Positions 10,769 through 54,611 are shown, counted from the stretch's first letter. The stretch is DNA of 64,000 bases from Candidatus Micrarchaeia archaeon (GCA_038886535.1 JAVZXS010000001.1:32001-96000); one strand, 5' to 3'. A program made the numbers and translations. The notes: generated from the sequence alone by a model not told the origin.

Positions 10769-11173
10769 TTACTTGCAGAGTACTATAACTTTTCTTTCCC
10801 TAGGTCCATCAAACTCACACAGCATTATACCTTGCCATGTTCCTAAAAGAAGCTTACCATTTTTAAAAGGTATAGTAACACTAGGGCCTATAAGTGCAGC
10901 TTTTATATGCGCAGCTCCATTGCCATCTACCTTATCATGTCTCCACTTTCCTTCAGGGATAATTTTAGATAAAGAATCTAGAAAATCATCACATACGGAA
11001 GGATCCCAATTTTCATTTATAGTTAATGCTGCAGTCGCATGCGGAACATAGACAAGACAAATCCCTTCCTCTATCTTCTTTTCTTTTGATTCTTTTCTTA
11101 CAATTTCTTCTACTTCTTTAGTTATATTTATTATTTCATTTTTTCTTTCAGATTTGACTACAATTTCATGCAT
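10769..11173 (-). CDS. yjbQ: YjbQ/UPF0047 family protein
   Basis: PHATAALTINE, DGNGAAHIKA and LGTWQGI..CEFDGPR motifs. Confidence 0.93.
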   Translation of the reverse strand: MHEIVVKSERKNEIINITKEVEEIVRKESKEKKIEEGICLVYVPHATAALTINENWDPSVCDDFLDSLSKIIPEGKWRHDKVDGNGAAHIKAALIGPSVTIPFKNGKLLLGTWQGIMLCEFDGPRERKVIVLCK

Positions 11174-12837: not shown

Positions 12838-14508
12838 ATGGTAATAACTTTACAGGAAATGGTTGATCAATCAATAAGGACAGTTTTTACCACTGATTGG
12901 TTTGCAACTTCAATAATGGCACTCCTTCTATCCGCAGCTTTAAGTGCTTTGGCCTGGATGCTCTCTTCTGCATTTCAATCTAACGAATTGAAAGGATGGG
13001 CAAGAAAAGAATTAAGTGAATTTATAGTTACTGCATTAATTTTATTATTATCGGTCCCATTACTTATGACAATAACATCTATAACAATTGCATATGCAGG
13101 CAGTGATCCATTCTTTTTAGCAAAAAGTTTTTTAGATAAAGTCGAGGACGATTTGACATATACATATAGTTATCTTTTCGGGCTTAATATAGTTTATAGT
13201 GGGGCAAGCACACTTACGATTGATCTATCAAAAATACTATCCTGGCTTCTAACGATGGTTGGGTCGATTGCTGGACTAACAGCAGGCGGAGTCGGTGCGA
13301 TAGCTGGAGGTCTTGGTGGTTTTGGAATAGCTAATCTTGCAAAAGCAGTCACAGGTCTTAAATTAGGATTAAGTCTAGGAGCACCATTCAGTATGGTTGC
13401 AGATATTATTTCAAACATTTTATCTGGATTAGTGCCTTTCTTGTTAGCATTCTTTGTGCAGAAAGAACTTTTGTTTTTCATACAATATACAGCGCTCCCA
13501 GTGCTGTTCCCAACAGGGGTTCTTCTTCGTGCATTTCCACTTACTAGAAAAGCAGGTTCAACTTTGATTGCATTGTCACTAACATTATTTATAGCATATC
13601 CATTGACATTAGCATTTGCATCTAAGATGTATGACGATACAAAGGCTGCAATATCTACAGGACAATTAGATTATAGGCCTGAAAGAGTATCAATTCCATT
13701 TTTCAGACTTTTGCCTGATGCAGGAAGATATTATCTAAATCAATCTGATAGATTTCTTTGGGATGTATTTACTCCAATAAATTACTCAATTTGGGGAGAT
13801 GTTTCATGTAATGAAGTGGGTTCAATTTATGAATCAAGAAATCCCCAAAATCCAGAACCACCTCCAGAAGATTATATGTATTGGAAAATAACTGAAAGAA
13901 CAACTTATCCACTCTGTCCAAGTCCGTATGAGCCATGTAGAGAGGAAACAATGGAGGTTTCAAAATGCTATAGAAAGATTCAGAAAGGAGAAATTAATTC
14001 ATCTGGAAGTATTGAATACTTATTAAATAACGAGAATATATTTCCAAACAATAAGGTTCATTCAATAATATTGGTTACTAAGCAAACAAGAGAAGAAGGG
14101 GTTAGAATTGTTTCAGAAGAGGTTAGGTTTTATTTAGGTGATCCATGTCAAGAAAACTTATGGTCAATTTTATGGTGCAAGTTAAAGGGGACTGCAGGAG
14201 AATCTCCAATTAATGATGTTTCATACTTGAATCTGGCTGTAACTGCAAGTATTGGAGGAATAGAGGGTGCGGCAAGAGCAGTCGGTCAGATAACAGGTTA
14301 CACTGTAACAAATTATCTCGCTACTCCATATGCTGCAGGAATGGCATTTTATGGTTTAACTGATGTACTTCCTAATATTCTGTTTCCATATGTATTTACA
14401 ATATTTGTTTTCATAGTAATCATATTTGTGACAATCTCTACATTTAGATCTATATCAACAACATTAGGTGGAGAAACAAAGATAATTGAATTAGGCAGAT
14501 TGGTTTGA
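12838..14508 (+). CDS. polytopic membrane protein, paralog 1 of 6 (CedA/VirB6-like), with a large Cys-containing soluble insertion
   Basis: LKGWARKELSEFIVTALI; LFPTGVLLRAFPLTRKAGSTLIALSLTLFIAYP; C-terminus STTLGGETKIIELGRLV. Confidence 0.75.
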   Translation: MVITLQEMVDQSIRTVFTTDWFATSIMALLLSAALSALAWMLSSAFQSNELKGWARKELSEFIVTALILLLSVPLLMTITSITIAYAGSDPFFLAKSFLDKVEDDLTYTYSYLFGLNIVYSGASTLTIDLSKILSWLLTMVGSIAGLTAGGVGAIAGGLGGFGIANLAKAVTGLKLGLSLGAPFSMVADIISNILSGLVPFLLAFFVQKELLFFIQYTALPVLFPTGVLLRAFPLTRKAGSTLIALSLTLFIAYPLTLAFASKMYDDTKAAISTGQLDYRPERVSIPFFRLLPDAGRYYLNQSDRFLWDVFTPINYSIWGDVSCNEVGSIYESRNPQNPEPPPEDYMYWKITERTTYPLCPSPYEPCREETMEVSKCYRKIQKGEINSSGSIEYLLNNENIFPNNKVHSIILVTKQTREEGVRIVSEEVRFYLGDPCQENLWSILWCKLKGTAGESPINDVSYLNLAVTASIGGIEGAARAVGQITGYTVTNYLATPYAAGMAFYGLTDVLPNILFPYVFTIFVFIVIIFVTISTFRSISTTLGGETKIIELGRLV

Positions 14509-14522
14509 GTATGAGGGATTAA

Positions 14523-15425
14523 ATGGTTGTAAGTACTTGCCAGGCTGTATTTGATGTATGGACGTATATAGGGGCAGCGTCAGCACTTGCAATCGCATTA
14601 ATCGCTTTTCTTTATGCTTTAGGAAGAATACTTACAAAGAGTGAGCTTGAGTCATTGGCAAAGAAAGAACTTTCAGAGTTTTTCATTTCATTTTTAATAG
14701 TAATAGGCGTTGCTGGTCTTTCTTCAATTATATGTCAGGTTACTCCATACATAGTTAAAGATGTAATAGGTTACGGAGATCAATTTTCAGCATCATATGA
14801 TTATCTTAATACACTTATTTATAAGAAAGGAATACCAGCCATACAAAGAGTTTGGACTTCCTCTATTATTTTGGATTCAATATCTTCTGTTGAAAGCAAG
14901 TTCAAAATTGGTAAATCTTCTAAATTGCTAGAGCAGGCAGAGGTAAAGGTCAAGCCAGCAGTCATATTAAAACCACTTAGTAAGATGCTTGGCATATTTA
15001 CAGGAATATTTCAAATATTAATAGGAAGTTTGCAAGCGCAGATGGTATTCATTCAGTTAGCAGAGGCATTTGCTTTGACGCTAATACTTCCAATAGGAAT
15101 GATTCTAAGAGCAATTCCAGGATTAAGGAAAGGAGGTTCTTATTTGATAGCCTTCGCATTTGGCCTTTACGTCGTCTTTCCACTTATGTATGTTATGAAT
15201 TATTCTGTATATAAAATAATTGAGCCTAGCTTTGGCGAACTAGTTTCAGTTCAAGTTAATCCAATTGAAACATTTAAGTTGTCATCTGACATTATCAATA
15301 TATTTAAGTATTTTGATGAATTTTCATTATTATTCCCTCAAGCACTTCTGCTTCCAGCACTTAATCTTACTATAACAATTGCATTTATTTCATCATTCGC
15401 AACGTTTCTTTCTGAAATAAAATAG
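14523..15425 (+). CDS. polytopic membrane protein, paralog 2 of 6 (minimal form)
   Basis: LESLAKKELSEFFISFLI; ILPIGMILRAIPGLRKGGSYLIAFAFGLYVVFP. Confidence 0.75.
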   Translation: MVVSTCQAVFDVWTYIGAASALAIALIAFLYALGRILTKSELESLAKKELSEFFISFLIVIGVAGLSSIICQVTPYIVKDVIGYGDQFSASYDYLNTLIYKKGIPAIQRVWTSSIILDSISSVESKFKIGKSSKLLEQAEVKVKPAVILKPLSKMLGIFTGIFQILIGSLQAQMVFIQLAEAFALTLILPIGMILRAIPGLRKGGSYLIAFAFGLYVVFPLMYVMNYSVYKIIEPSFGELVSVQVNPIETFKLSSDIINIFKYFDEFSLLFPQALLLPALNLTITIAFISSFATFLSEIK

Positions 15426-15446
15426 ATAGATATCTGATGTGATTAA

Positions 15447-16634
15447 ATGGTATTTGAAATATTATTTGAATGGTGGGTTCCTGTTGCAGTTTTAATCCTA
15501 TTCATAACTCTTACATTCATTTCTTTAATCTATATGGTAGCAAGGGCTTTAGAGAATGATAATTTTAAGAAATGGGCCCAAAATGAAATATATCAGGTTT
15601 TTGCATCAGCTCTTATAATAGGCTCTTTATTCATATTTCTAGCTATAATTAATAATATTACATTAAATCTAATCCCTTTAATCGCACCCAATCTAGATTT
15701 TCAATGCAGTGGTGATAGCTGTACATTTAATACACTAAAAATAACTGCAGAGTCAATAAGATCGCAAAGCGGAGTAAAATTTGAATCTGTTCAAAAAGAG
15801 TGCAAGCAAGGATATTGCCATATAGAAGTGGCTAATTCGTTATTAGGTCAGTATTATGACATCATTCGTTTTTATTTAGGAAACAAGATCAGTGCTATAG
15901 GTTGGATTAGTGTGATTTCATCTTTCAAGATGCAATTATTAGGTTTTCACGTTTCTCCATTCTCCGGATTAACTCCTATATTAGATATTTATAAAAACTT
16001 CATTACATTTGGAACAAATTTACTTATACTTATAAAAGTAAATCAACTTTTCCTAGTATTTACTTCAGTTGCATTATTTCCAATGTTTTTGATTGCTGGA
16101 ATCGCACTACGTTCCATATCTCTATTGAGAGGTGTTGGAGGACTGTTATTAAGCATAGCAATTGGTTCATTCTTTGTTTATCCTTTCTTGCTATTGCTTT
16201 CTTTTTCAATTGTTTCACCAAATCCAAATTCTAATGTAATATATTTATCTGATGATAGTGGATTTGTTACTGATCTTCCAAGTCTGGATTCAGGTATTCA
16301 AGAAAATCAGATTGAATGGCTTTCAAGCAAATCTAGCTATACAAGTATAGTCGATTCAGTCAAAAAAGTGGCTCAATTTTCTATAAATTTATTTAACATG
16401 ATTGTAAACATTAAAGGAAATATCGGAGGACAGGAAGTCAGCACTGATTTTATATCTTACATGTTCTTTAGTTCGATTCTTCCTAATGGTTTTCTAGATA
16501 ATATGGCTTTCTTGTCCATGTGGATGTTTGTTCCATTTATAATTTCAATTTATTCACTACTGGTATTCATAAAGGAATTTTCTTCATTCCTTGGTGGAGA
16601 TATAGATATAGCAGGATTATCCAAGTTAATTTGA
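15447..16634 (+). CDS. polytopic membrane protein, paralog 3 of 6
   Basis: FKKWAQNEIYQVFASALI; FLIAGIALRSISLLRGVGGLLLSIAIGSFFVYP; C-terminus SSFLGGDIDIAGLSKLI. Confidence 0.75.
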   Translation: MVFEILFEWWVPVAVLILFITLTFISLIYMVARALENDNFKKWAQNEIYQVFASALIIGSLFIFLAIINNITLNLIPLIAPNLDFQCSGDSCTFNTLKITAESIRSQSGVKFESVQKECKQGYCHIEVANSLLGQYYDIIRFYLGNKISAIGWISVISSFKMQLLGFHVSPFSGLTPILDIYKNFITFGTNLLILIKVNQLFLVFTSVALFPMFLIAGIALRSISLLRGVGGLLLSIAIGSFFVYPFLLLLSFSIVSPNPNSNVIYLSDDSGFVTDLPSLDSGIQENQIEWLSSKSSYTSIVDSVKKVAQFSINLFNMIVNIKGNIGGQEVSTDFISYMFFSSILPNGFLDNMAFLSMWMFVPFIISIYSLLVFIKEFSSFLGGDIDIAGLSKLI

Positions 16635-16657
16635 TTGAAAAGTAATATAGTGAGAGT

Positions 16658-17797
16658 ATGGATCTAAATAAAATTGTTGTATTAATTTTATTTCTTTTGC
16701 CGATTTTAGTAGCAGAAGTTCCGCAAACAAATATTCCAACACTAAGATCTGTACCTTGGGAATTAACGGTTTTAGCAGCAATAATTCTATCTCTAACGTT
16801 GATAGCTTTAGGTTTTATGCTATCAAAAGCATTTGGAGTAAAGGAACTCAGCGCTTGGGCAAATAATGAATTATATCAAATAATAGTTCTCTCCTTTATA
16901 GTTTTCTTAATATTTGGAATTTTAAAAATAGAAAGTATAGTTTTCGAAGCATACAATCTTTCTTCACCAAATTCGGCCAATCCAGCAATTGAAAATGCGA
17001 AGAATTATCTTTATTCTGTAAGGTCCTATCTCACATTTATTATGGGTGGGTTAATATCTGAGAAGATGATTTTTACAGGAGGAAAAATAGCAACAAGTAT
17101 GGGTGTTTCATCACTTCCAGATCTTAGCAATTTTATATCGAAGTTTGTGTCAGTATTTAGTGTAGTATCTATAGACATAGGTGGGGTTATAGATGTGTTT
17201 TTCGATCCTATTACAAAAATAATAGATTTAGCTATAAGCGGATTCGGGGTTATTTATGCTCTTAATTCCATGCAAATTTATTTCTTAGAGTTTGTAGAGA
17301 ATGTTGCATTTGTTTTTATTCTTCCATTCGGTCTATTCTTTAGAATATTCAACTTTAGTAGAAAAGTGGCAAATCTTTTGATAGTTCTTGCAATCTCATT
17401 ATATATTGTATTTCCATTGACTTACTTATTGAATCAGAACATGGTAGATGCAGTACTTAATGAAGGATTATCAGGGGATAAAAGTTGGAGAGATATTTTA
17501 GGCGCAAGAATGGATAAACAAACAGGTGTAGAGGGATGTACAATTGGAGATATGTTTTCAGGCAAGTTTTTAGAATGTTTGCAAAAATCTTCAAAGAACA
17601 TTATAACAGCCAGTTTCTCTACCGCCACGTACATTTTTAATTTTGTATTTATAATATTTACAGAAGCCGCATTCGCATTTATATTATTTACATTAATACC
17701 GATCATAGATTTTACTATAACAGTTGTTATAGCAAGGGAATTGGGTTCCTTGCTAGGCTCAGATGTATCATTTGGAGATTTAATTAAATATTTATGA
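16658..17797 (+). CDS. polytopic membrane protein, paralog 4 of 6, with an N-terminal signal peptide-like segment
   Basis: LSAWANNELYQIIVLSFI; ILPFGLFFRIFNFSRKVANLLIVLAISLYIVFP; C-terminus GSLLGSDVSFGDLIKYL. Confidence 0.75.
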   Translation: MDLNKIVVLILFLLPILVAEVPQTNIPTLRSVPWELTVLAAIILSLTLIALGFMLSKAFGVKELSAWANNELYQIIVLSFIVFLIFGILKIESIVFEAYNLSSPNSANPAIENAKNYLYSVRSYLTFIMGGLISEKMIFTGGKIATSMGVSSLPDLSNFISKFVSVFSVVSIDIGGVIDVFFDPITKIIDLAISGFGVIYALNSMQIYFLEFVENVAFVFILPFGLFFRIFNFSRKVANLLIVLAISLYIVFPLTYLLNQNMVDAVLNEGLSGDKSWRDILGARMDKQTGVEGCTIGDMFSGKFLECLQKSSKNIITASFSTATYIFNFVFIIFTEAAFAFILFTLIPIIDFTITVVIARELGSLLGSDVSFGDLIKYL

Positions 17798-17886
17798 GTA
17801 ATTTGTATAAATTAAATTTAACTAGAAATGATCAAATTCATAATAAACAATGTAGATTGTAATGATCGATCATAGAGTGTGATTAC

Positions 17887-19455
17887 GTGGAAGGAATCGA
17901 TTTCATAAAAAGTAGAAAAATATTCATCTTTTTATTTCTATTTCTAGTTACATCTATTTTTGCCCAGTCAACACAAATAGAAAAAGCTAAGAAAATAGAA
18001 GATTTGAATAAGGAGGCATGTGAATTTACACTTACTAGCAATGATTGGAGAGTTTTATCAGCGATAGGATTATTATTGAGTGCAGTTTTTATCGCAGGCT
18101 TGTATCTTTATGGATCAGTTATAGATTCTTCATTTATAAATAAGGCCAAAGAGGAATTGTTTCAGCTCTTTTTCACCCTTGTCATTATAATATTTTTAGC
18201 GTTCATAGTTCAGACATTTATGTGTAGCGATATCATTTCTTCTATATTTAATTTGAATGATCCACCTTATATTGCATCTTATAATTATTTATCATCTGTT
18301 AAGAATTATATAATAAGTGCGGCTATAAAAATGGGTGCATTAGGATCTTCCTTATCATTAATCTCTTCATTTGAATACAAGTTAGACAGTTCAATAGCAA
18401 AGAGCGGATTATTTGGAGCGCTAATAAATCCGATCTCATATTTTTCAGATGCATCACTTGCTATATTCTCTTCTCTTGCAAGCGCATATATGGTTATTCT
18501 TATAATGATAAATATTTTGTTAATCATGCCTTTAATTTCTTTAAAGTTCTTTATTCCAATAGGAATAGTTTTTAGGTCGATATATCCATTTAGAAAATTC
18601 GGTGGAGGTTTATTAGGCATAGGAATTGCATTATACATCTTTATTCCAATAGTATTATTACTTAATAATTTGTTAGTCGGAAGTTATATATATGAACCGA
18701 TAAAGGAACTCAGTTTACAATGTCAGGATAATTCTGATTGTTATTCTCATATTTGTGAGTATAATTCTACACTTGGAATTAAAACATGTAATCCTATGAA
18801 AAAGGAAGGAGAGATCTGCAGAAATGATTTTGAGTGTCAATCAGGATTTTGTGATCCATCATCTAAAAGATGTATAAAATGTGTTTCCGAAGGATTCATT
18901 TCGGAAGGATTACCTTGTTGCAATGGTTTAATTTTAAATTCAACAACTAAAAGATGTGAATTAGGCAAGCTTCCTGGTCAGAATTGCATCTTCAATAGTG
19001 ATTGTGTACTTTCATTTTGCAAAACAGATATTTCAGGTATAAGAACATGTACTAGCTTAAAGAAGATAGGAGAATCATGTATGTTTGATGAAGAATGCAT
19101 ATCAAGAAGATGTATAGGTATAGCACCAAATAAAGTATGTGGAAGAAGTATAATTACAGAAGAGGATCAAAGTTCTATTTATGCTAGCGTTTCAGCATTT
19201 AGTTCAATAATGCCTGAAGATGCGCAGCAAATAATAACAGAGTTAGAGCTATCTAGATTCAATTTTGAAAATAGTGAAGGAAAGACCTATATAGATAAGG
19301 CATTTGATTATTTATTTAAGGATATAGTGATAACATTTATAGTAGGTATAGTATTGCCATTATTAAATCTAACTATAATAGCGAAGGCAACATCAGATCT
19401 ATCTCAAGCCCTTGGACAGGAGATTGAGACGGCAAGTATATGGAGATTAATATAA
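17887..19455 (+). CDS. polytopic membrane protein, paralog 5 of 6, with a 20-Cys repeat insertion
   Basis: FINKAKEELFQLFFTLVI; FIPIGIVFRSIYPFRKFGGGLLGIGIALYIFIP; four C-x5-C-x4-C units; C-terminus SQALGQEIETASIWRLI. Confidence 0.75.
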   Translation: MEGIDFIKSRKIFIFLFLFLVTSIFAQSTQIEKAKKIEDLNKEACEFTLTSNDWRVLSAIGLLLSAVFIAGLYLYGSVIDSSFINKAKEELFQLFFTLVIIIFLAFIVQTFMCSDIISSIFNLNDPPYIASYNYLSSVKNYIISAAIKMGALGSSLSLISSFEYKLDSSIAKSGLFGALINPISYFSDASLAIFSSLASAYMVILIMINILLIMPLISLKFFIPIGIVFRSIYPFRKFGGGLLGIGIALYIFIPIVLLLNNLLVGSYIYEPIKELSLQCQDNSDCYSHICEYNSTLGIKTCNPMKKEGEICRNDFECQSGFCDPSSKRCIKCVSEGFISEGLPCCNGLILNSTTKRCELGKLPGQNCIFNSDCVLSFCKTDISGIRTCTSLKKIGESCMFDEECISRRCIGIAPNKVCGRSIITEEDQSSIYASVSAFSSIMPEDAQQIITELELSRFNFENSEGKTYIDKAFDYLFKDIVITFIVGIVLPLLNLTIIAKATSDLSQALGQEIETASIWRLI

Positions 19456-19489
19456 ATTTTAAAAATAATAAAAAGAAGGAAGTGAAGGT

Positions 19490-20704
19490 ATGAAAAAATA
19501 CAATAAAAAAGCATTTACAAACGAATCAAAGGAATCAATTAAAATAGCAGCTTTCTTTCTTTTCCTATTAGTGTCTATTATATTTGCTCAAACATCTAGT
19601 CCAGGACAAGAGTTCAATAAAGTATGGACTTCTTCCGAATTTCCCTGGCAATTAATTGCCTTAATTGCGGTTTCTATTTCTTTTTTGTTCGCAGCCCTCG
19701 CTTATATGTTTTCTAAAATATTTCAGTCTTCTGATCTTGAAAAGTTTGCAAAATATGAGTTTCTTTATGCGTTATCTACTCTTTTGTTGGCAGTTTTTAT
19801 AGTAGCGGTAGTGGATGTACTTGCATTAAAGTCAGGCGAATTTGTATTTTTGCTATCTAAAAACATAAATCTGCCAGGAAGTGAAAAACTTATAGATTAT
19901 GTTTCTCAAAAAGGTTATTCTCCATTTTCAGTTGCAGATTTTTATTTATCTTCGCTAAATAAACTTGCAATCAAAAGATATCAAGATGTTTTCTGTATTG
20001 CATATCCATTCTTTGTGTTTACAGGAATAGACAAAAAAGAAGATGTGGAAACACAGTCTAAAGTGGGTTCTATATTTAAAGCTATTAGTAATTTCTTTGT
20101 TGGGAATACATTTACTTCGCAATTAAAGATTGCATCTTTCAATATATTTCTTACTTCTTTAAATAGAGCAATGTCTAACTTATCATATTTAATATATTCA
20201 TTATATTTCCAATTGCATCTTCTTTCATTTATCCAGCAAACAATGCTTACCGTGTTTCTTCCCATAGGAATTGTATTAAGAGGTTTTCCATTTGTACGAT
20301 CCATAGGCAACATGTTTATTTCTATAGCTTTAGGCCTGTATTTTGTTTATCCTATCACATTTAGTTTGTTTTTGACAATGGGAATGCAAGGTTCATCACA
20401 GATTTCATTTTTAGAGACATCTGGAAGAATGCAACTTTCTTGTATACAAGATCTTGTAACCAACATTCCATCATTACCTATAAAAATAACATCAATGATA
20501 ATAAAAATAAGTGGTGAAGGCGTAAGTGCGATTACAATGGAAATAAATGATAGTGTTAACGCTTTGGTCGGAGAACTATTCGTATTCGGTTTTATATTTC
20601 CGGTTTTATCATTAGTTATTACATATACTTTTATCAAATCTTTTGGAATTATATTAAATGCAGATATACAAGAGTTTGCAGAAGGTGTGGTTAAGCTAAT
20701 ATAA
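19490..20704 (+). CDS. polytopic membrane protein, paralog 6 of 6
   Basis: LEKFAKYEFLYALSTLLL; FLPIGIVLRGFPFVRSIGNMFISIALGLYFVYP; C-terminus GIILNADIQEFAEGVVKLI. Confidence 0.75.
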   Translation: MKKYNKKAFTNESKESIKIAAFFLFLLVSIIFAQTSSPGQEFNKVWTSSEFPWQLIALIAVSISFLFAALAYMFSKIFQSSDLEKFAKYEFLYALSTLLLAVFIVAVVDVLALKSGEFVFLLSKNINLPGSEKLIDYVSQKGYSPFSVADFYLSSLNKLAIKRYQDVFCIAYPFFVFTGIDKKEDVETQSKVGSIFKAISNFFVGNTFTSQLKIASFNIFLTSLNRAMSNLSYLIYSLYFQLHLLSFIQQTMLTVFLPIGIVLRGFPFVRSIGNMFISIALGLYFVYPITFSLFLTMGMQGSSQISFLETSGRMQLSCIQDLVTNIPSLPIKITSMIIKISGEGVSAITMEINDSVNALVGELFVFGFIFPVLSLVITYTFIKSFGIILNADIQEFAEGVVKLI

Positions 20705-20784: not shown

Positions 20785-22548
20785 ATGCGTAACATAATTA
20801 AAATCTTGGTATTTTCTACATTCATAATCAGTCTAATTATAGCACAAGCAATACCAACATACATAATTTATGCAGATGCAAAGGAACAGACAAATAATAA
20901 TTACAATTTTTCTGCAACGCTTGTTTCCATTTCTGTTCCTGAAGATAGAACAACTTTAAAGGAAAAGTTAGAAACTGGAAAAGTTGATCCTTCAACAATA
21001 ATTAATAATTTTAAGTATTCACCAATCCTCTCTGCCAAAATATTAGTTTATTCAATCAACCCTGCCAACCAAGAAGATAAAAAATATGTTTGTGAATTCA
21101 TAACAGCTCAGGACGGAAGAGGAAGTTGTATAGGAAGAATTAGTGAATCTAATCCTATAATTCTCTTTATATTTGAAGGTAATTCAACTTATGCCCCATC
21201 TCAATTTACAATTTCAATTCCAAAACCATTTCCAATTCCGCCACTTAAGGAACTTGTGGACGCAAGTTGGCTAATTATATTCTTTATTATTGGAACGTTA
21301 ATTGCAGCTTTGTATGCTTCAGGAAGGGATCCATTGGCTTCATTAGATATAACAACTCCAAAAGCAAGAGGACCTTCTTATCCAAAGCCACAAAAACTTA
21401 AATTATCGAAAGCACCACAACTTCCTTTGATGGTTTATTCTATACCTGCTTCTACAAAAATAATTTCTGCAACATCTGCATTAAATAAATACGTGGAAAC
21501 TAAAGAGGAAAAGAAAATTCTAACAGAAATTCAAAAACAGGCATATACAAATCCATCTAAAGCATCAATAAATTTAGTTAAGTTTGTTATAGATAAGGGT
21601 ATTCTTAATAGACTTCAACAAAGAAAAGAATGGGCAGCTAAACAAATGAAAGAGACAGAAGAAAAACTTAAATTACAATCACCATATCCAAAAGGAAAAT
21701 TGACAGATGAAAAGTTTCGCAAGAGAATAGAAATCCAAGATCTTAGAGATAGATTAAGGATGTATAGAGAAGAACTTTCATCCGCTATTGAAGTAACGAA
21801 TAAGATAATCTCTGCTACAGCAGGAACAACTGCAACTAATCTGGATCCTGAAGTTTTTGGAAATACATTAGTAGAGGCAGAGAAAACACTATTAAACGAA
21901 ATAAAAGATAAAAAGCATATTAATAAAGAAACAAAAACAGTAAATATACAATCATTAGAGAAAGAATTAGATGAAAAGGTAGATAAATTAGTTAAGGTAT
22001 TAGTACCTAAGGATGTTCCAAGTGAGATAATTAATGAGCAAATTCATCCATTAATTAAAGCCAAAGTTGAACTCGACAGATTGTATATATCTAAGATCAT
22101 TGCAGCATTCAATAAAATGCAGCCAAGCGTAGAATCATTAATTAAGAAAGGAGATATCAATTTAAGTGAAATCAGAAAAATGAATTATATAGAAAAGACC
22201 AAATATATAACGAAACTAATCAATGAAATTAAACCAAAAGGATACAGACGAATAAACAAGGAGATATTACAAATTGCAATGACCAAAGAAGAATATGAGA
22301 ATATGATAGCAAAACTTCAAAAACTACTTAAGCAATACAGATCCGCAGTCAAGGTAAACGACGAAAAAACTAAAGATAAACTCACAATTCAAATTGGATT
22401 TCTTTATTACCAAATCGTAAGACGTGCTAAAGCATATTTAGAAAATATAAAAACAGGCAAATACGAAACAGAATTTACAATAGAAGGATTTGAAGAATTA
22501 TTAGCTGAAGAAGAGAAGCCAAAAGAGAAAGGAAAAGCAAACGAATGA
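20785..22548 (+). CDS. single-pass membrane protein: signal peptide, extracellular beta-rich domain, TM helix, large charged helical cytoplasmic domain
   Basis: N-terminal hydrophobic signal; TM WLIIFFIIGTLIAALYA followed by GRDPLASLDITTPK; Lys/Glu-rich helical C-terminal ~380 aa. Confidence 0.75.
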   Translation: MRNIIKILVFSTFIISLIIAQAIPTYIIYADAKEQTNNNYNFSATLVSISVPEDRTTLKEKLETGKVDPSTIINNFKYSPILSAKILVYSINPANQEDKKYVCEFITAQDGRGSCIGRISESNPIILFIFEGNSTYAPSQFTISIPKPFPIPPLKELVDASWLIIFFIIGTLIAALYASGRDPLASLDITTPKARGPSYPKPQKLKLSKAPQLPLMVYSIPASTKIISATSALNKYVETKEEKKILTEIQKQAYTNPSKASINLVKFVIDKGILNRLQQRKEWAAKQMKETEEKLKLQSPYPKGKLTDEKFRKRIEIQDLRDRLRMYREELSSAIEVTNKIISATAGTTATNLDPEVFGNTLVEAEKTLLNEIKDKKHINKETKTVNIQSLEKELDEKVDKLVKVLVPKDVPSEIINEQIHPLIKAKVELDRLYISKIIAAFNKMQPSVESLIKKGDINLSEIRKMNYIEKTKYITKLINEIKPKGYRRINKEILQIAMTKEEYENMIAKLQKLLKQYRSAVKVNDEKTKDKLTIQIGFLYYQIVRRAKAYLENIKTGKYETEFTIEGFEELLAEEEKPKEKGKANE

Positions 22549-22569: not shown

Positions 22570-24702
22570 ATGATCGAAGGCATCTTTAGAAACTTATTAA
22601 ATTTTAAAAACGAAAGATTTTTTCTTATATTTCTGGTTCTTACATTTGCATCTATCTTTCTTTTCGGTTGTATAAAAAAGATTGAACCAATAGACCAATA
22701 TATTAAAAAAGATAAAATTGAGTATCTTCAGCAGGTTCATTCATCTTTTAACAATTGTACAGTAATGGTCTGCGAATATTCTTCTTGGTGGATAAAAGTT
22801 TGGAGTTCAGTAAAAGGATATTTTTCAAAAGAAACCGCAAGTCTCGCAGGTAAGGAATGTACATTTCAACAATTTAATCTTGACGATGAAGAGGACTTAA
22901 AGAGATTGAATTCTATTACAGGCCTTACTAGAGTACTGGAAACTACTTCTCAATCAGGTTCGAGTTCTTCTCAAACCAGTTCATCATCTTCGAGTTCAAA
23001 GTTTATCCAATCTGTAATGATAGGAATAGGAGATAGTGCTTATGCAGGAGATGAAATATTTTCCAGCTGTAATGGACATTTGGGAATTAATCTTATTGAT
23101 GTCTCATCTATTCCAAAAGAAATAGAGAGCGACAGTGTTAAGAAAAGATTTACAGATATGAATGACTGTATATTAAATTCAGGTACTATTCCATTTTATA
23201 AATTTGGAAGGCTTGAAAGCTCTTTGAGTTTATTTGTAAAGAAGATAGAAGGAGAGGGACCTGCATTTATTTCCCCAGGATATGGTTTTAACAAATCTAG
23301 ATTTGATCCAAATATAATTTCTCCAATAGGTTCATTTTATTCTATAAATACAAGTTGCAAAAATTGTATTGTAACAGCTACAATAAATTATGGTGATCTG
23401 GATACATTAGATTATTATAAAAACTATCCATTAGACTGGGAGAGTATAGATGTAATTGCATTTATTGCAGATCTTAATTCATTTGACACTTGTGATCCTT
23501 TGATTTCTATTCAAAATGAAACAAATTCGCTTAAATCATTTGCTCAAAACATCACTGAGAAGTATCATAAGCCAGTGATAGTAATAGTGAAAGGGAGTGA
23601 GGGAAACAATGCAAAGAAAACATGCGAGTGGACTAATGAATCTATAGCTAGGTTTTATGATTATCTTATAAGGTCTATTCCAGATTTAGTTTCTTCAGGT
23701 GTTATAGGAATAATAGCACCAGATATTTCACAACTTTCTTCTGAAATGTATAATTCAATTAGCTTCTTCTGCTCTATTTATTATACACCAGCATCTTCCT
23801 CATTCAATTTTGCAACATACAGTATTTTTTCAAGAGAAGGTGATAAGCCTTCAGCTTGCGGAATGTATAAATCATCGACAACAATGTTTATGTTTGGTGA
23901 TGTAAAAAATTATAGTGAATTGCCTTTACCAAGAATAAAGAGAGATGAAACCTGTAATTCAAAATTGTTTTATGAGATATCTGTTGGACCAGGTACTTTC
24001 TTTAGCTCTTATTGTGAGAAGAATAATAAGTTTATATCTAACATTGCTTCAAAGTATTTTATAGATTCCTCCCTTTTCATGGCAACACTTCAGAAATTAG
24101 GTTATTATCAAAATCAGCTCCAGCAATATGAAAAGCACTGCGGAAATAAGTGCGAAGTTTATTCAAACCAGGAACAAAGAGATTTATGCTGTCTTGCAGA
24201 GACAATGGCATATTATCAAAATAAGACATTAAACAAGAAATCAGATATTGATGATATATTCCTTGCATATTTCATTGTGTATGGAACATTGAAGGGAGAG
24301 TCAGCTTATAAAGAAGAATTTAATAAATACTCACCTTCTGCAAACATGGAAAGAAAAAGCGAATCACCTATCATTTTATTAGAACCTTCCTCAAGTAATT
24401 CTAAATCAGTATATATGCAATCTTCATTCTGCGATCTTTATTTAACATTATGTAAAGAGTATCAAGATGTGTTCTATTGTATGTTATATGATCAGAATTG
24501 TAAATATCAAACCCCAACCATTCCTGAACAGCCTTCTTTGCCTACCCCACCTACGCCACCAACACAACCGCCAGAGCCTTCACAGCCACAACCTCCTCAA
24601 TCTCCGTCCGGAAGCGATCAACCTACTTATAATTTTGATAGTTCTATTTTACAAGTAATTAAGGATGCGGTTGCTGCAAGAGTAATTTGTGGACTAACTT
24701 AG
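22570..24702 (+). CDS. Cys-rich putative lipoprotein with Ser-rich and Pro-rich linkers
   Basis: Lipobox-like FLFGC after a hydrophobic stretch; many Cys; SSSS linker; PTPPTPPTQPPEP tail. Confidence 0.75.
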   Translation: MIEGIFRNLLNFKNERFFLIFLVLTFASIFLFGCIKKIEPIDQYIKKDKIEYLQQVHSSFNNCTVMVCEYSSWWIKVWSSVKGYFSKETASLAGKECTFQQFNLDDEEDLKRLNSITGLTRVLETTSQSGSSSSQTSSSSSSSKFIQSVMIGIGDSAYAGDEIFSSCNGHLGINLIDVSSIPKEIESDSVKKRFTDMNDCILNSGTIPFYKFGRLESSLSLFVKKIEGEGPAFISPGYGFNKSRFDPNIISPIGSFYSINTSCKNCIVTATINYGDLDTLDYYKNYPLDWESIDVIAFIADLNSFDTCDPLISIQNETNSLKSFAQNITEKYHKPVIVIVKGSEGNNAKKTCEWTNESIARFYDYLIRSIPDLVSSGVIGIIAPDISQLSSEMYNSISFFCSIYYTPASSSFNFATYSIFSREGDKPSACGMYKSSTTMFMFGDVKNYSELPLPRIKRDETCNSKLFYEISVGPGTFFSSYCEKNNKFISNIASKYFIDSSLFMATLQKLGYYQNQLQQYEKHCGNKCEVYSNQEQRDLCCLAETMAYYQNKTLNKKSDIDDIFLAYFIVYGTLKGESAYKEEFNKYSPSANMERKSESPIILLEPSSSNSKSVYMQSSFCDLYLTLCKEYQDVFYCMLYDQNCKYQTPTIPEQPSLPTPPTPPTQPPEPSQPQPPQSPSGSDQPTYNFDSSILQVIKDAVAARVICGLT

Positions 24703-35858: not shown

Positions 35859-36269
35859 ATGAATTCTTATACCGAATATCTTTGGTTTAATACAAAAAAG
35901 GAAAGAGAGATAATAAACATTACAAACCAGATAGAGGAAATTGTTAAGAAGAGCAAGGTGAAGGAAGGATTCTGTTTGGTTAGTGCAATGCATATAACTG
36001 CAGCTATATGGGTTAATGATGAAGAACCTGGATTAAAGGAAGATGTTATGGAATGGCTTGAGAGGCTTGCACCAAAAGCAGACTACAAGCATCACAGGAC
36101 AGGTGAAACAAATGGCGATGCCCATCTTAAGCGCACGCTAATACACCATCAGGTAGTACTGCCTATAACAAACGGTGAACTTGATCTTGGTCCTTGGGAG
36201 CAAGTGTTCTATATGGAGTTTGACGGACAAAGAAGGAAAAGAGTTATAGTAAAGATAATCGGAGAATAA
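35859..36269 (+). CDS. yjbQ: YjbQ/UPF0047 family protein (second paralog)
   Basis: SAMHITA...[16 protein letters not shown] and [17 protein letters not shown] motifs. Confidence 0.93.
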
Positions 36270-39032: not shown

Positions 39033-39131
39033 AGCCCGAGAAGGGATTTGAACCCTTGACCTCCTGTTTACGAGATTCGCCGAAACTTTATTATAAGTTT
39101 CTCAGGCGCTCTACCACTGAGCTACTCGGGC
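39033..39131 (-). tRNA. tRNA-Thr(CGT) with a 27-nt intron at non-canonical position 30/31 (intron 39076..39102)
   Basis: GCCCGAG-TA-GCTC..GAGC-G-CCTG|AGAAACTTATAATAAAGTTTCGGCGAA|T-CT-CGT-AA-ACAGG..AAGGG-TTCAAAT-CCCTT-CTCGGGC-T; complete bulge-helix-bulge. Confidence 0.93.
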
Positions 39132-39184
39132 TTAAATATTATTTCCAGATTATGTTTATAAAGGATATCAATAAATTATTAGAT

Positions 39185-40480
39185 ATGAAACATCTAGTGA
39201 TTTTAGTTTTAATTTCATCTTTTTTAATTTTCGGATGCATTGGAATCGAGGAAATAATTTCAGAGCCGACTACTTTTAGCTTGAATGGTACAGTTAAATC
39301 AATTAATGGAGATGCAATTCCAAATGCAAAGATAGAGATGATTTCTAATAAAACATACTTCACATATAGCGATGACAATGGTTTTTATAAATTTTCAAAT
39401 CTTACACAAGGAAGCTATAAAATAAGAATAACTAAAGAAGGATATAAGGATTATAATCTTTCATTTATTTTTTATCCTGGAAGCTATGATTGGAATTTTA
39501 CATTAGTTAAAGACTGTTTATATTATGAAATTCCAACAAAAAGAGATTATTTAGTTATATATGGTTATAATGGAACTTTGTATCGTACAGAATTAACTTG
39601 TGATTTACCTTATCCTGAAAATTCATTATTAAATATTTCTTTTGATGGAACAAAAAAAGATATTTATTATATTGGTCAGAATAGAATGGTACGACTTTCA
39701 ATCGATAATATTAATCAGAAATATAATTCAATCAAGTTCTATTTTTTAATTGCGCTTAATGGAACTAATAGCATAAAGATATTTGAAAGAAAGGAGACAA
39801 CTATACAGGAGGCTTCATCTTTAATGCAAAATTATCTTGGAGAAAGGACAATGACCGATGTTTCAACAGGAAAGACAAAGAAAATGATTGATCCAAATAA
39901 TGAAGAAATTAAGATGATTGTCACAGACATTAAGAAAAGAGTAAACAGTGATAATGTTTGGGATGTAGCAAGGGAATTATTCATTTGGCTTAAAAACAAT
40001 ACTTCCTATTTCAATCAAGGCGGGGTAGACGAATATGTTCAGTCTCCAGCTGAGATGATGAAATCAAGGAAAGGTGACTGTGATGAACTAAGCTATCTTT
40101 ATATCTCTCTTCTCAGGGCAGCAGGTATTCCTTCGAGATATGTAGAAGGGTTTTTAGCCAAAGAAAATGAAACTAGGTTCGTAAGGCATATGTGGGTTGA
40201 ATTTTACGATGGAGAGTGGGTACCAGTGGAGGTAGCAGGAACTGGAAAAATTGAAGATGAAGTTAATACTAATTTCGGTGTTGAAAGAAACATACACGTC
40301 CCAATCTTTATAGATGATGGGACACAGGCATCTTTCGAAAGAACCGGATGCAAATATAAGTATTATGTTCAAAAGCCAGAAGTATCAAATTATGCCTATT
40401 ATACTTCAATACCATTTGATGAAGCGTATATTGCAGTTTGTAGTAATGGAGAAAGATATATTACTTATCAAAAAGAATAG
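39185..40480 (+). CDS. lipoprotein with a carboxypeptidase-regulatory-like Ig domain and a transglutaminase-like domain
   Basis: Start reassigned to MKHLV because the ORF-track start overlaps the tRNA; lipobox LIFGC; G.V....G..IPNA...D.NG.Y.F..L..G.Y.I...KEGY; GDCDELS..LLRAAGIP.RYV.G..HMWVE. Confidence 0.88.
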   Translation: MKHLVILVLISSFLIFGCIGIEEIISEPTTFSLNGTVKSINGDAIPNAKIEMISNKTYFTYSDDNGFYKFSNLTQGSYKIRITKEGYKDYNLSFIFYPGSYDWNFTLVKDCLYYEIPTKRDYLVIYGYNGTLYRTELTCDLPYPENSLLNISFDGTKKDIYYIGQNRMVRLSIDNINQKYNSIKFYFLIALNGTNSIKIFERKETTIQEASSLMQNYLGERTMTDVSTGKTKKMIDPNNEEIKMIVTDIKKRVNSDNVWDVARELFIWLKNNTSYFNQGGVDEYVQSPAEMMKSRKGDCDELSYLYISLLRAAGIPSRYVEGFLAKENETRFVRHMWVEFYDGEWVPVEVAGTGKIEDEVNTNFGVERNIHVPIFIDDGTQASFERTGCKYKYYVQKPEVSNYAYYTSIPFDEAYIAVCSNGERYITYQKE

Positions 40481-40535
40481 AAATTTAAATTCAAAAAACG
40501 TTAGTTAATATAACAGTTAAGACAAGTGATATTAT

Positions 40536-41924
40536 ATGCCGCCTATGTTAAAAGAAATTCAAAATGAAAGAGAGGAAATAAATAAAATATTAGGAAAAAT
40601 AAAAGAAATAGCAGAAAGAAAAGTGACAGAATTCTCTATAAAAGATTTAGAGGGTGCAAAAGGGTCTTTTTTTAAGATTGAATTGAATATAAAAAATGAT
40701 AACTTTAAGAAAAAACTGATAAATGAAGTTTATGATTTTATTAGGGAAAATGGTTACCAGATTGTATTCAGATTGGGAGAGGAAAGTAATAAGTCAATAC
40801 TTTATATTGGGAAAAGTTATGCAAGAGAGATAAACTACTTTTTACCATCTAAAGACATCATTCAAGGTTTTATTGATGATGCAATAAAAAGAAAAAATCT
40901 TACTGGAAAGGGATCCGAGCTTTATGCAAATCCTAACATGGGAATATTAGTAAAAGTAAAAGATGGAAAGGTAGAAAACGTAGCAATCCTTTCAGGCGCT
41001 TCTATTTCAATCCCATTAAGGACAGGTACTTTTCAATTAGGACAATTAGAAAAAGGAGGATGGATCATACCCTCTGGAAGAAAGGGTTTTTCAGAACTAA
41101 GGGAGAGATATCCCGATTCTTTTTCTTCTTCAAACTCACCTTATCCTTGGAGTATATTTAATCTTATGGGATCAGCCAAAATATCATTTAAAGGAACAGA
41201 AAAGCTTCACTTCCGTTCTTTAATCTATCCTGGTTTTACTGGAGAGGCACCGTTAGGAAGTGAGGCAGGAATACTTGATGATCTTTACAATCAAACTACA
41301 GCAGGCTGCCTTTTTGTTGGAGAGGGTTCGTTCTACGCAATTAAGAAAGGGAATAAATACATAACTGGAACAGACGAAGAGATAAGAAAGAAAGATATTG
41401 GAGTCTTATTGCATAAAGGAGAACTTAATCTTGAGCCATTAGAAGTAGGAACTAGGTTAAGAATGAGGAATGGAGAATGGGCAACCCTTTCTCTTGACCA
41501 ATATAATAATCAGGTGTGGCTTGATGAAAATGGATATTATGTTCCCTTCGATTCCATAAACTTCGATTGGGATTCAAAAGAAATGCCTCAAATAGTATGG
41601 AAGCCACCAGAATTTGGAGAATCTAGATTTATAAATAATGAAATATCAAATAAACAGATTTATATAGATGATAAAAGATATTATATTGTGGAAAAAGATG
41701 ATAAATTACAGGTTGTTATATATCCTCAAAGATATTATACAAAAGGAAAAGATATGAAACAATTAAAAGAAGAAATAAAAGATAATTTGTCAAATCTACT
41801 TAATAGAAAAGATCTCGAAATTTCAGAAGATGAAATTAAAAACTTAGATTATGCAATTAAAATTGCACAACTTACACCTATTATGATAAATATTGACATT
41901 TCTAAATTTTACGCGGAGAGGTGA
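40536..41924 (+). CDS. hypothetical protein
   Basis: 462-aa ORF; no family recognised. Confidence 0.75.
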   Translation: MPPMLKEIQNEREEINKILGKIKEIAERKVTEFSIKDLEGAKGSFFKIELNIKNDNFKKKLINEVYDFIRENGYQIVFRLGEESNKSILYIGKSYAREINYFLPSKDIIQGFIDDAIKRKNLTGKGSELYANPNMGILVKVKDGKVENVAILSGASISIPLRTGTFQLGQLEKGGWIIPSGRKGFSELRERYPDSFSSSNSPYPWSIFNLMGSAKISFKGTEKLHFRSLIYPGFTGEAPLGSEAGILDDLYNQTTAGCLFVGEGSFYAIKKGNKYITGTDEEIRKKDIGVLLHKGELNLEPLEVGTRLRMRNGEWATLSLDQYNNQVWLDENGYYVPFDSINFDWDSKEMPQIVWKPPEFGESRFINNEISNKQIYIDDKRYYIVEKDDKLQVVIYPQRYYTKGKDMKQLKEEIKDNLSNLLNRKDLEISEDEIKNLDYAIKIAQLTPIMINIDISKFYAER

Positions 41925-41928
41925 TATA

Positions 41929-43467
41929 ATGTTAATTTTATTTCAACTTGCAATGCAAAAACCAGAACAAAAACTGACAGCAGAAAAACTTTTTGATAAT
42001 GCCAAATTGAAAAATTTAGAAAATAACGAAAGGAATGCATTAGAAAAACTAATTCAGCAAATGAGTTATGTGAACAACAAAGATTTTACTGATTCTGTAC
42101 GTAAATTCTTCAAATCAAACAAAGGAGAGATCAAATTTACAGGAATTTTTACTGCATCTGAATTAGATAATCTTGAGAAGGCACTTAATAAACTAGGCTA
42201 TAAATTTGAATTTTCAATCATTCCAAATGATGACGAACAAATTCAAAAGTGGTATAAATATACAAATAAAGATCCAGCTTTAGATATCAAAAATTTCATT
42301 AATTTCATGAATGGTGGTAGTGTTGAATTTGAGTTAAGTACGAGCAAAATATCAAAAGAATCTAATGAAGGAATGGACGGAACGCTTCAAGTTATGAATA
42401 TAAATATAACTACTATACAGAAAAATATTGATAATATTCAAGAAGATTTAAAAGGTATAAAGAAAAAGTATAATGATACATCTTCTACTCAAGTAGAACA
42501 ATCTAAATCAGAAGGAAAAAAAGAAGAGGAAGAGGTAAGAGAGCAAAAATCAGATGAAACATTGCAGAAAGCATTAGATCAAATTGGAAATATTCAAGTT
42601 AAAATTGGAGGCAAACAAACTAGAATTAATGAAATTTCATCTGCAAAATCTAAGCTTAAAAAACTGGAGCAAGGTCTTAATGAAGGAGAATCTGTTTCAT
42701 TCACTATGAATCCAAATCTAGTTATGATGAATAACTTAAAGGAAATTGCTAAATATTGGGCAGGAAAAGATGTAAAAGAAGAGCAGATTAGCGAAAACAA
42801 ATTTGTATATACTGGGGAAGGAGGGTCTTATGAAGTTAAGTATGAGAAAGGCCAATATATTATTACTCATCTTCAATCCATCCAAAAGAAAGAACCAAAG
42901 CAGGAAATAACAAATGTATTTTCTATGGAATTAATCATCAATGGAATAAACTTCAATAAGCCAGATACAGATGGTAAACATAAAGTTCAAAAGTTATTGG
43001 AAGGGAAAGAAGTAGAATATAATTATAAAGACTTTCCTAAAATCAAAGATGCATTCCTAGCTGAGATTAACAATAGAACAGGACGTACATATAAGTATGC
43101 GGCAGGTTATCCTAAACAAGTTGGTACTACTAATAAATATATCGTTAAATTAGAACTTGTGAGTGACGAAAAGTCAAACTCTTCATCTACGCAACCTCCG
43201 GAGGGAATGCAAAAACCAACAGAAACATCTAAACAAGAAAAAAAAGGTTCGACTACAAAAGAAACTAAAGAAGATATTTTAAATAATCTTTTAACTGAAA
43301 TAAACAAAAGCGAAAATTTAACGCAAACTGTGGCAAATATTCAGAGCGGTCTCCGTATATCTGTTTCTGCTGGTGAAATAACAAAGGATGATGCAATATG
43401 GATAGCGAACGAATTGAATAAAAAAATTTCTGAAAGAGATAGTAAATTAAAGATTACTATACTGTAA
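41929..43467 (+). CDS. hypothetical hydrophilic protein
   Basis: GAGGTG RBS supports the ATG at 41929; Lys/Glu/Gln-rich with low-complexity linkers. Confidence 0.75.
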   Translation: MLILFQLAMQKPEQKLTAEKLFDNAKLKNLENNERNALEKLIQQMSYVNNKDFTDSVRKFFKSNKGEIKFTGIFTASELDNLEKALNKLGYKFEFSIIPNDDEQIQKWYKYTNKDPALDIKNFINFMNGGSVEFELSTSKISKESNEGMDGTLQVMNINITTIQKNIDNIQEDLKGIKKKYNDTSSTQVEQSKSEGKKEEEEVREQKSDETLQKALDQIGNIQVKIGGKQTRINEISSAKSKLKKLEQGLNEGESVSFTMNPNLVMMNNLKEIAKYWAGKDVKEEQISENKFVYTGEGGSYEVKYEKGQYIITHLQSIQKKEPKQEITNVFSMELIINGINFNKPDTDGKHKVQKLLEGKEVEYNYKDFPKIKDAFLAEINNRTGRTYKYAAGYPKQVGTTNKYIVKLELVSDEKSNSSSTQPPEGMQKPTETSKQEKKGSTTKETKEDILNNLLTEINKSENLTQTVANIQSGLRISVSAGEITKDDAIWIANELNKKISERDSKLKITIL

Positions 43468-54585: not shown

Positions 54586-54611
54586 ATCAAATTAAACGAT
54601 TAGGTGATCAT

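Follow-up and report, generated by a model that had tools for sequence, protein, structure and literature searches.

We report that six consecutive genes at positions 12838-20704 of a 64,000-nucleotide stretch of a Candidatus Micrarchaeia genome (GCA_038886535.1, JAVZXS010000001.1:32001-96000; hereafter the window, that is, positions 32001-96000 of contig C1 of G000, the genome under study) encode divergent membrane paralogs that probably fill the slot of VirB6, DotA, CedA and TedA in an apparatus derived from type IV secretion systems (T4SS) and resembling the Ced and Ted systems, with this component expanded to six fixed subunits. The apparatus would be chromosomal and common to most Micrarchaeia. 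The likeness to CedA and VirB6, and a role in a transfer apparatus, had been proposed in an earlier note made by a model from the nucleotide sequence (hereafter the original prediction). The proposal has gained support from the co-occurrence of the family with a pilin and an ATPase across 41 relatives and from the adjacency of the respective genes in eight genomes. Further support comes from an N-terminus homologous to the pilin and from near-full-length fold matches to TrwI/VirB6 and DotA.

Six paralogous genes in a fixed order

The six co-oriented open reading frames (ORFs), denoted p1 to p6 by position, occupy exactly 12838-20704 on the plus strand and are separated by spacers of 14, 21, 23, 89 and 34 nt. 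The first of them, p1 (12838..14508; 556 aa), combines an N-terminal transmembrane (TM) hairpin, the core motif PTGVLLRAFPLTRKAG and a C-terminal tail; p2 (14523..15425; 300 aa) is the minimal member and lacks the tail; and p3 (15447..16634; 395 aa) has a core without the leading Pro. The remaining three, p4 (16658..17797; 379 aa), p5 (17887..19455; 522 aa) and p6 (19490..20704; 404 aa), start with signal-peptide-like sequences, with p5 initiating at a GTG preceded by a Shine-Dalgarno-like motif and p6 carrying a variant tail. The paralogy of the six proteins is beyond chance: pairwise BLASTP connects p1 with p4 at 2e-17, p1 with p6 at 4e-15, p4 with p6 at 1e-12, p2 with p4 at 2e-10, p3 with p6 at 2e-7 and p5 with p6 at 4e-6, the last being the only significant tie of p5 to the set.

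The original prediction of six co-oriented genes sharing three elements holds both for the ORFs and for the motifs in their alignment. Motif (i), 'WA..E' following TM1, includes the invariant residues A55 and E58, and the core motif (ii) includes the invariant G227, R231, R237 and P255 (p1 numbering, alignment of the six); across 102 family members, G225, R229, R235 and P253 (p4 numbering) are invariant. Motif (iii), the tail 'LG.D/E....L..LI', was expected in five of the six proteins and is seen in p1, p3, p4, p5 and p6; it is missing from p2 and from the position-2 orthologs in 13/13 arrays. The different insertions that were said to follow the core in several paralogs are likewise present, with lengths of 12 to 233 aa in the five proteins for which they were determined (p2, 12 aa; p6, 48 aa; p4, 58 aa; p5, ~200 aa with 20 Cys; p1, ~233 aa with 6 Cys; p3 was excluded because it lacks the strict motif), and they vary between orthologs.

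When 5794 six-frame ORFs of the genome were searched with a profile of the six proteins, these six and another six, in a second array on contig C4 (24767-32068, minus strand), were recovered, and no further member was found at E<=10. For p1, p2, p3, p5 and p6, but not for p4, the best cross-array BLAST match is the positionally equivalent gene on C4. The family is large: among 1.84 billion representative proteins, the profile matches 3001 metagenome clusters (defined at 50% identity) at E<=0.001, 2221 at E<=1e-10 and 182 at E<=1e-30. Nevertheless, Pfam yields no meaningful family for the 102 members, NCBIfam no match to the six proteins at E<=0.1, and a PDB sequence search with the six proteins and the family profiles nothing meaningful.

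The arrays examined contain exactly six family genes in 17/17 cases from 13 Micrarchaeia genomes, namely 13 arrays in nine genomes and four in G037, G012, G017 and G022; the array regions were picked from match lists and are not a random sample, and a fragmentary array of G009, with one member broken by stops, was left out of the count. In a phylogenetic tree of the 78 proteins from the 13 arrays (IQ-TREE in quick mode, LG+G4, 334 columns), positions 1, 2, 3, 5 and 6 each fall on one side of a branch, with Shimodaira-Hasegawa-like approximate likelihood ratio test (SH-aLRT) values of 86, 99, 98, 89 and 97, respectively, and position 4 splits into four pieces on long branches. The position labels require five changes on this tree, which is the minimum, against a mean of 50.9 after shuffling, with 0/200 shuffles as low. 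A second tree of 87 rows, to which the divergent arrays of G037, G017 and G012 and three single members (see below) were added and from which G014, G029 and the G022 array are absent, is less clean, with ten changes versus a minimum of six (shuffle mean 57.7) and with single branches for positions 2 and 5 only; no well-supported branch in it demands more than one origin for any position. Moreover, 160 representative matches are all best scored by one of the class profiles (36, 1, 46, 42, 14 and 21 for positions 1 to 6).

Gene position thus tracks orthology in the tree, so that the six-fold expansion and the gene order are both old; the old six-fold expansion postulated in the original prediction is strongly supported, and the variable copy number or order in relatives that was named as contrary evidence did not appear in any of the arrays. 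Within the classes, arrays group by type, that is, type a (the window), type b (C4), type c and the type of family f7, and therefore the arrays have been copied as whole blocks of six.

Co-occurrence with a pilin and an ATPase

Contig C2 of the genome, which carries TrbC/VirB2-type matches, encodes a compact module that consists of three or four VirB2-like pilin genes followed by genes for a 273-aa two-TM protein and a 523-aa ATPase, and then for a 160-aa two-TM protein, a 248-aa coiled-coil protein and an 873-aa protein; apart from the pilins, the proteins of the module have at most two predicted TM segments. The best NCBIfam match of the ATPase is CedB (NF041017; E 3.7e-24), far under the cut-off (85 versus 700 bits) and ahead of the VirB4-like, CedD and HerA models, and its best PDB sequence matches are HerA (1e-13) and VirB4 (4ag5, 8e-5). 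The statement that no VirB4/CedB ATPase is encoded in the window was thus correct.

The distribution of this module was surveyed in 41 class-level relatives. Searches with the family profile, the C2 ATPase and the pilin profile pick out an identical set of 34 genomes. In the other seven (G010, G015, G020, G025, G030, G035 and G040), from four families and with a completeness of 89-97%, none of the three has a match. The relatives are not independent, and the pattern amounts to at most four separate absences, without exception. Furthermore, in G034 (family f7), the array lies exactly between pilin genes and orthologs of the 273-aa protein and the ATPase. The pilin-like gene on one flank matches PF04956 (TrbC/VirB2; 1e-4) and PF18895 (T4SS_pilin; 2.4e-4), both below the Pfam cut-offs; the other flank contains two 270-aa genes and an AAA_10/HerA/TraG-P-loop ATPase (PF12846, 3.6e-13) that is 57% identical to the C2 ATPase, so that the flanks are orthologous to the C2 module. 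The same layout is indicated by coordinates in G014, G024 and G029, and by profile (HMM) and BLAST searches in G037, G012 and G022 (family f5) and G017 (f10), with the class order 1(?), 2, 3, 4, 5, 6. Altogether, the array is placed between pilin and ATPase genes in eight genomes from families f5, f7 and f10. Within these relatives, a conserved six-gene order and co-occurring ATPase and pilin genes, for which a survey was suggested along with the original prediction, were both found.

Three genomes contain, in addition, a one-copy mini-module in which the order of genes is the same as in the large cluster: a pilin-like gene, a single family member, a p280-like gene (in G037 and G017) and an ATPase-like gene (G037:C1:163000-169000, L071; G017:C3:314500-320500, L072; G022:C3:22000-28000, L073). 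The single members are 345, 333 and 355 aa long in G037, G017 and G022, respectively, and form a clade of their own, nearest to class 4, in the second tree; the ATPase-like genes are 26-42% identical to the main ATPase. Since the mini-module includes one family member, the family fills a single polytopic slot, and the array represents an expansion of that slot. The mini-module seems to be the same apparatus in a one-subunit form, encoded beside the six-subunit one.

The genome encodes three AAA_10/VirB4-like ATPases, on contigs C2, C7 and C8. The C7 and C8 loci were considered as partners of the array and rejected, given that they are set among bacterial F-type genes (TraC, TraN, secretin). 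These loci (L066 on C7, L065 on C8) encode TraC-like VirB4 proteins of 804 and 868 aa, TraN, a secretin and a TrbC pilin, and their guanine-plus-cytosine (GC) contents of 31.5% and 32.7% are at the genome level; they may come from low-GC bacterial contamination or from a bacterial-type element.

Several other features of the ATPase and pilin loci were observed in passing. The ATPase matches in two pieces within one frame of 1050-1176 aa in G014 (C2:186493-189627), G009 (C115:1972-5481) and G039 (C37:2713-5802), the pieces covering query residues 1-75 and ~70-520 in G014 and G009, and 9-292 and 291-521 in G039; these look like elements inserted at two different sites, possibly inteins. Directly 3' of the ATPase in families f5, f7 and f10 is a gene of ~100 aa whose product resembles the C-terminal ~100 residues of the ATPase itself at 28-40% identity (L016:5284-5580 in G034; L067:335-637; L068:590-883; L069:407-706; L070:348-662). 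Upstream of the C2 pilin genes, and divergent from them, are genes for RadA (Rad51 family, 3.9e-93; G000:C2:51879-52832, L064:1879-2832, minus strand) and a P-loop protein, a neighborhood that is not conserved in G034. In G019, a type-a array is directly followed by a gene for a 437-aa T2SSE-family ATPase (G019:C1:81019-82329, L027:1020-2330; PF00437, 5.7e-36). VirB11 and the ATPases of archaeal pili belong to this family.

Homology to the pilin and fold of the family

Profile-profile comparison with hhalign detects similarity between the family and the cognate pilins. A profile of six pilins aligns with the family at a probability of 90.3% over 20 columns, and one of 56 pilins aligns with the N-terminal 105 residues of the family at 87.8% (E 3.3e-6) over 86 columns that span the signal peptide, TM1, the loop and TM2. 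The controls, comprising the reversed N-terminus, the TM3-TM4 core, the C-terminus, the long loop and 20 column shuffles, gave at most 0.4%. Judging from these profiles, the N-terminal hairpin of the family is homologous to the pilin. The same relationship between the N-terminus of the polytopic protein and the pilin is described for CedA and CedA1 and for VirB6 and VirB2 in the portions of PMC9905601 available to us.

The AlphaFold2 (AF2) models of p4 (predicted local distance difference test, pLDDT, 85; predicted template-modelling score, pTM, 0.81) and p3 (pLDDT 81.5, pTM 0.77) are largely helical, with very long helices and, in p3, a few short strands; the helices of the p4 model (34-59, 62-98, 109-147, 175-228, 232-267 and 321-365) agree with the hydropathy segments. 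In a comparison of the p4 model with 48,161 chains, DotA ranks first (Z 8.5, root-mean-square deviation 8.1, 272 residues aligned) and TrwI/VirB6 fourth (Z 7.4, root-mean-square deviation 5.9, 228/261), and these are the sole near-full-length rows. When a Foldseek list of 833 was re-aligned to the p4 model, TrwI chains took ranks 1 and 2 (Z 8.7, 236/260; Z 8.2, 227/268). For the p3 model, DotA is the sole near-full-length row (Z 7.9, 255 aligned). The best structural matches of both models thus come from the TrwI/DotA group (R388 TrwI, PDB 7o3v and 8rtd, PF04610 TrbL; Legionella DotA, PDB 9ngy). In the accessible part of a recent preprint (bioRxiv 10.1101/2025.06.23.660953), the plan of DotA and VirB6 is given as a signal peptide (in DotA), two N-terminal TM helices and five long hydrophobic helices, with an extended disulfide-bonded domain in DotA. 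The family architecture, as seen in the AF2 models and hydropathy profiles, with inserts of up to 233 aa containing 6-20 Cys, matches this plan. A platform protein of the GspF/PilC/FlaJ type was considered and rejected, there being no T2SSF match and the pilins being VirB2-like.

Several observations count against placing the family in the VirB6/CedA slot. By the calibration of the tool, structural Z values of 7-9 fall in a range (under ~13) that is common among helical proteins. The top 50 rows for the p3 model do not include TrwI, and Foldseek gave no match at E<=0.001, with the R388 chains at E 0.85-1.3; its top rows (TTYH2, E 0.15, TM-score ~0.2) were judged to be chance hits. The profile match to bacterial VirB6 that the original prediction would lead one to expect was not obtained. 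PF04610 has no match on the six proteins at E<=1, none on the 102 family members at E<=0.01 and none in six frames of the genome at E<=10. Likewise, hhalign of the family (102 sequences) against TrwI (R388 sequence from NC_028464) and 32 homologs gave 0.2%, although the TrwI alignment is shallow, with all members at least 50% identical, and a remote relation could escape it. The family is set beside CedA and TedA by gene context and published descriptions rather than by sequence comparison. Finally, neither the window array nor the C4 array is linked to the C2 pilin-ATPase module, and the genome has two arrays for one archaeal-type ATPase.

Alternative explanations

One could envisage that the six proteins form a separate complex for the export, anchoring or display of giant surface proteins, such as adhesins, and that the link with the pilin and the ATPase reflects nothing more than a shared surface function. 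We regard this as unlikely. Very large secreted proteins are indeed often encoded after arrays (2791 aa on C4, 1366 aa in G031 and 1640 aa in G026, along with a 2194-aa protein at the end of the G034 cluster), but the giants are inconstant and are absent at the type-a arrays of G011, G019 and G026. The protein d2, encoded downstream of the window array, shares a domain with the C4 giant, yet neither d2 nor its neighbor d1 is conserved elsewhere. Such a complex would be compatible with the presence of SecD/SecF genes after one array and with the lack of a sequence-profile match to VirB6; it leaves unexplained the pilin-homologous N-terminus, the mini-module that combines a pilin, one family member and an ATPase, and the identical pattern of presence and absence with the pilin and the ATPase.

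Another alternative, in our estimation quite improbable, is that the six proteins are enlarged pilin derivatives, namely minor pilins or base or tip adaptors that reside in, or cap, a VirB2-like pilus instead of forming a channel. The homology of the N-terminal ~95 residues to the cognate pilin, signal peptide included, speaks for such an origin, but VirB6 and CedA also have a pilin-like N-terminus, and the full-length fold matches are to VirB6 and DotA. As leads only, the nearest named Atlas cluster, a 293-aa 'CedA1 domain-containing' one, is the same for p4 (0.86) and a mini-module member (0.90), and PF27251 (CedA1) is found on 23% of the members of that cluster. Variable inserts, one of them cysteine-rich, would also suit pilus components. 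All family members, however, have three more hydrophobic helices, with the most conserved residues of the family (an invariant G, R, R and P) in the TM3-TM4 hairpin, and a conserved tail after TM5, an organisation more in keeping with a subunit integral to the membrane than with a component of a fibre.

The least probable of the alternatives, a lineage-specific tandem membrane family that provides redundancy or surface variation and whose copies act alone or as homo-oligomers, has in its favor the tandem variable T4SS surface paralogs of host-associated bacteria that are read as aiding variation in the part of PMC12102498 at hand, the differences of inserts between orthologs and the inferential nature of a six-subunit assembly. 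However, if copies were kept for redundancy or variation, their number and order should fluctuate. Instead, the count is six in 17/17 arrays from 13 genomes, the positions correspond to old orthologous classes with features of their own (position 2, for example, is never tailed), and the arrays (types a, b and c) have been duplicated as whole blocks of six.

A proposed model of a six-subunit apparatus

The fixed number and order of the genes and the class-specific features of their products argue for non-equivalent subunits of one assembly in the VirB6/CedA-type slot. A prediction of the p3-p4 complex (alignments of 39 and 38 rows) gave a score of 0.03 (mark 0.32) and is informative neither way. 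Agrobacterium VirB6, according to topology mapping, reportedly has its N-terminus outside, five TM segments, a large central periplasmic loop and its C-terminus inside. By hydropathy, the AF2 models and the positive-inside rule, a similar arrangement is predicted for the Micrarchaeia proteins. The N-terminus would be outside, after cleavage of the signal peptide in p4 to p6; TM1 would run inward to a short cytoplasmic 'F..EL..WA..E' loop and TM2 outward, forming the pilin-like hairpin. In the models, TM2 is followed by a long helical bundle that would be extracellular, after which TM3 would return inward to a short cytoplasmic loop containing the invariant Arg residues and TM4 would lead out again to the variable insert, which is probably extracellular and may be disulfide-rich in p1 and p5. 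TM5 would then run inward and leave the amphipathic tail in the cytoplasm.

We propose, as the likeliest arrangement, that one copy of each of the six subunits forms a ring or platform under a VirB2-like pilus, such that the pilin would polymerise on the platform, the C-terminal tails would contact the ATPase and cargo would pass through the platform. Both the hetero-oligomer and its stoichiometry, as well as the docking of the tails to the ATPase, the direction of transport and the cargo, are put forward here as conjectures. By default analogy with Ced and Ted, the cargo may be DNA that is imported; for a DPANN cell, exchange of other molecules with a host, possibly at the host contact, would be plausible.

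A bolder version of this model, which we consider doubtful, holds that the ring is hetero-hexameric and matches the six-fold symmetry of the CedB/VirB4-like ATPase, that the six-gene arrays, two or three in genomes such as this one, are swappable cassettes serving one motor, and that the mini-module is the ancestral, Ced-like form. If so, the types a, b and c, some of which are tied to different giant proteins, would swap the platform on a single pilin-ATPase motor and thereby change host-contact specificity or cargo.

Genomic setting of the array

The assembly of G000 is 1.14 Mb in 40 contigs, with a completeness of 88%, a contamination of 0.25% and a GC content of ~32%. The genes surrounding the array are archaeal housekeeping ones, including those for a family-B DNA polymerase, SRP54, a tRNA-intron endonuclease, the proteasome alpha subunit, exosome subunits and L15e. 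Close homologs of p4 carry the source names Candidatus Micrarchaeia or Micrarchaeota, and the Atlas label on the family clusters is Microcaldota. A search for sequencing runs found no RNA run and seven DNA runs of hot-spring metagenomes from two studies, of which two runs may be the origin of the present DNA.

Downstream of the array by 80 nt is d1 (20785..22548, plus strand), which encodes a 587-aa membrane-anchored coiled-coil protein outside the family and may be co-transcribed with the array. It is followed by d2 (22570..24702, plus strand; 710 aa), whose association with the array is uncertain; it encodes a probable surface protein that has an anchor at the N-terminus, numerous Cys and stretches rich in Ser or in Pro/Thr. 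The starts of p1 to p6, including the GTG of p5, and those of d1 and d2 are each preceded by a purine-rich Shine-Dalgarno-like motif of the GTGA type. Neither of the two proteins is similar to p1-p6 by BLASTP, and both were rejected as conserved partners after no homologs were found beside the arrays of other families. Residues 258-380 of d2 resemble residues 2574-2703 of the 2791-aa C4 giant (G000:C4:15509-23881, L001:1507-9882, minus strand), which contains cupredoxin-like and cysteine-rich (Dickkopf_N, DUF7107-like) stretches.

Elsewhere in the window are two UPF0047 (YjbQ-like) paralogs (10769-11173, minus strand; 35859-36269, plus strand) and, at 39056-47537 and 51250-56135, clusters of genes for large proteins (462, 524, 1239 and 1111 aa) without family matches, which adjoin genes for transglutaminase-like and CARDB-domain proteins and probably encode surface proteins.

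Relationship to known systems and significance

Two archaeal systems for DNA import are described in the accessible text of PMC9905601, Ced in Sulfolobales and Ted in Thermoproteales, in which CedA and TedA are VirB6-like, CedA1 and TedC are VirB2-like pilins, and CedB and TedB are VirB4-like ATPases. To the extent covered by that text, the Micrarchaeia system is of the same kind, namely a chromosomal, minimal archaeal T4SS derivative composed of a pilin, a polytopic protein with an N-terminus homologous to the pilin, and an ATPase; moreover, the Micrarchaeia pilin has a cleavable-looking signal peptide, as does TedC. The Micrarchaeia system differs in having six fixed paralogs instead of the single CedA or TedA and in additional conserved partners, the two-TM p280 protein and the 248-aa and 873-aa proteins. 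The lineage is different as well, with no mention of Micrarchaeota or DPANN in the available sections of PMC9905601. Thus, the apparatus appears to belong to a known kind, and what would be new is that the VirB6-slot protein comes as six fixed subunits.

Compared with VirB6 and DotA, the family likewise has a VirB2-like pilin and a VirB4-like ATPase encoded alongside it and differs, beyond the absence of sequence-profile similarity and the low Z values, in its quaternary plan: TrwI/VirB6 and DotA are homopentamers, as reported in the accessible part of bioRxiv 10.1101/2025.06.23.660953, versus six different subunits here. No VirB3, VirB8 or coupling protein was detected in the Micrarchaeia system; no VirB5/IcmX-like partner was identified, and there are no outer-membrane parts.

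Four to five VirB6 (RvhB6) paralogs are present in Rickettsiales, against six in the Micrarchaeia array, and a 2009 study by Bao and colleagues, going by its title, is said to concern the four VirB6 paralogs of Ehrlichia. The Rickettsiales rvh T4SS is the closest parallel for multiplied VirB6 genes, with VirB6-type genes duplicated within one T4SS, in a host-dependent organism with a reduced genome, and with enlarged, divergent paralogs; it is unlike the Micrarchaeia system in that it is a P-type T4SS of diderm bacteria and its VirB6 domain can be recognised, as far as the consulted part of PMC8035066 describes it. The Micrarchaeia set, in turn, is unrelated in sequence to RvhB6 and is duplicated as whole six-gene blocks. 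A second parallel is found in Patescibacteria (Candidate Phyla Radiation, CPR), ultrasmall episymbionts with reduced genomes that encode VirB4, VirB6 and multiple VirB2-like pilins, with virB6 essential for the growth of one CPR epibiont. These systems are bacterial, are akin to monoderm conjugation systems and have a VirB6 that is found by standard profiles, and no six-paralog array is described in the sections of PMC12102498 seen here, from which these points are drawn. Among the titles and abstracts found on type IV secretion in DPANN and Micrarchaeota, none describes the present system.

DPANN archaea depend on hosts, and to our knowledge the machines that they use at the site of host contact are largely unknown. 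The present analysis would place a large family without a Pfam, NCBIfam or PDB sequence match into the polytopic slot of an apparatus derived from conjugation machinery. A set of six VirB6-type subunits, fixed and not interchangeable, that is duplicated only as whole blocks would constitute a layout not seen in known T4SS and not described before for host-dependent archaea. The module offers a natural comparison between its six-subunit and one-subunit versions, and these could serve as a test case for the evolution of homo-oligomeric secretion platforms into hetero-oligomers. Furthermore, the six membrane proteins, the pilins and one ATPase make up a defined set of targets for study.

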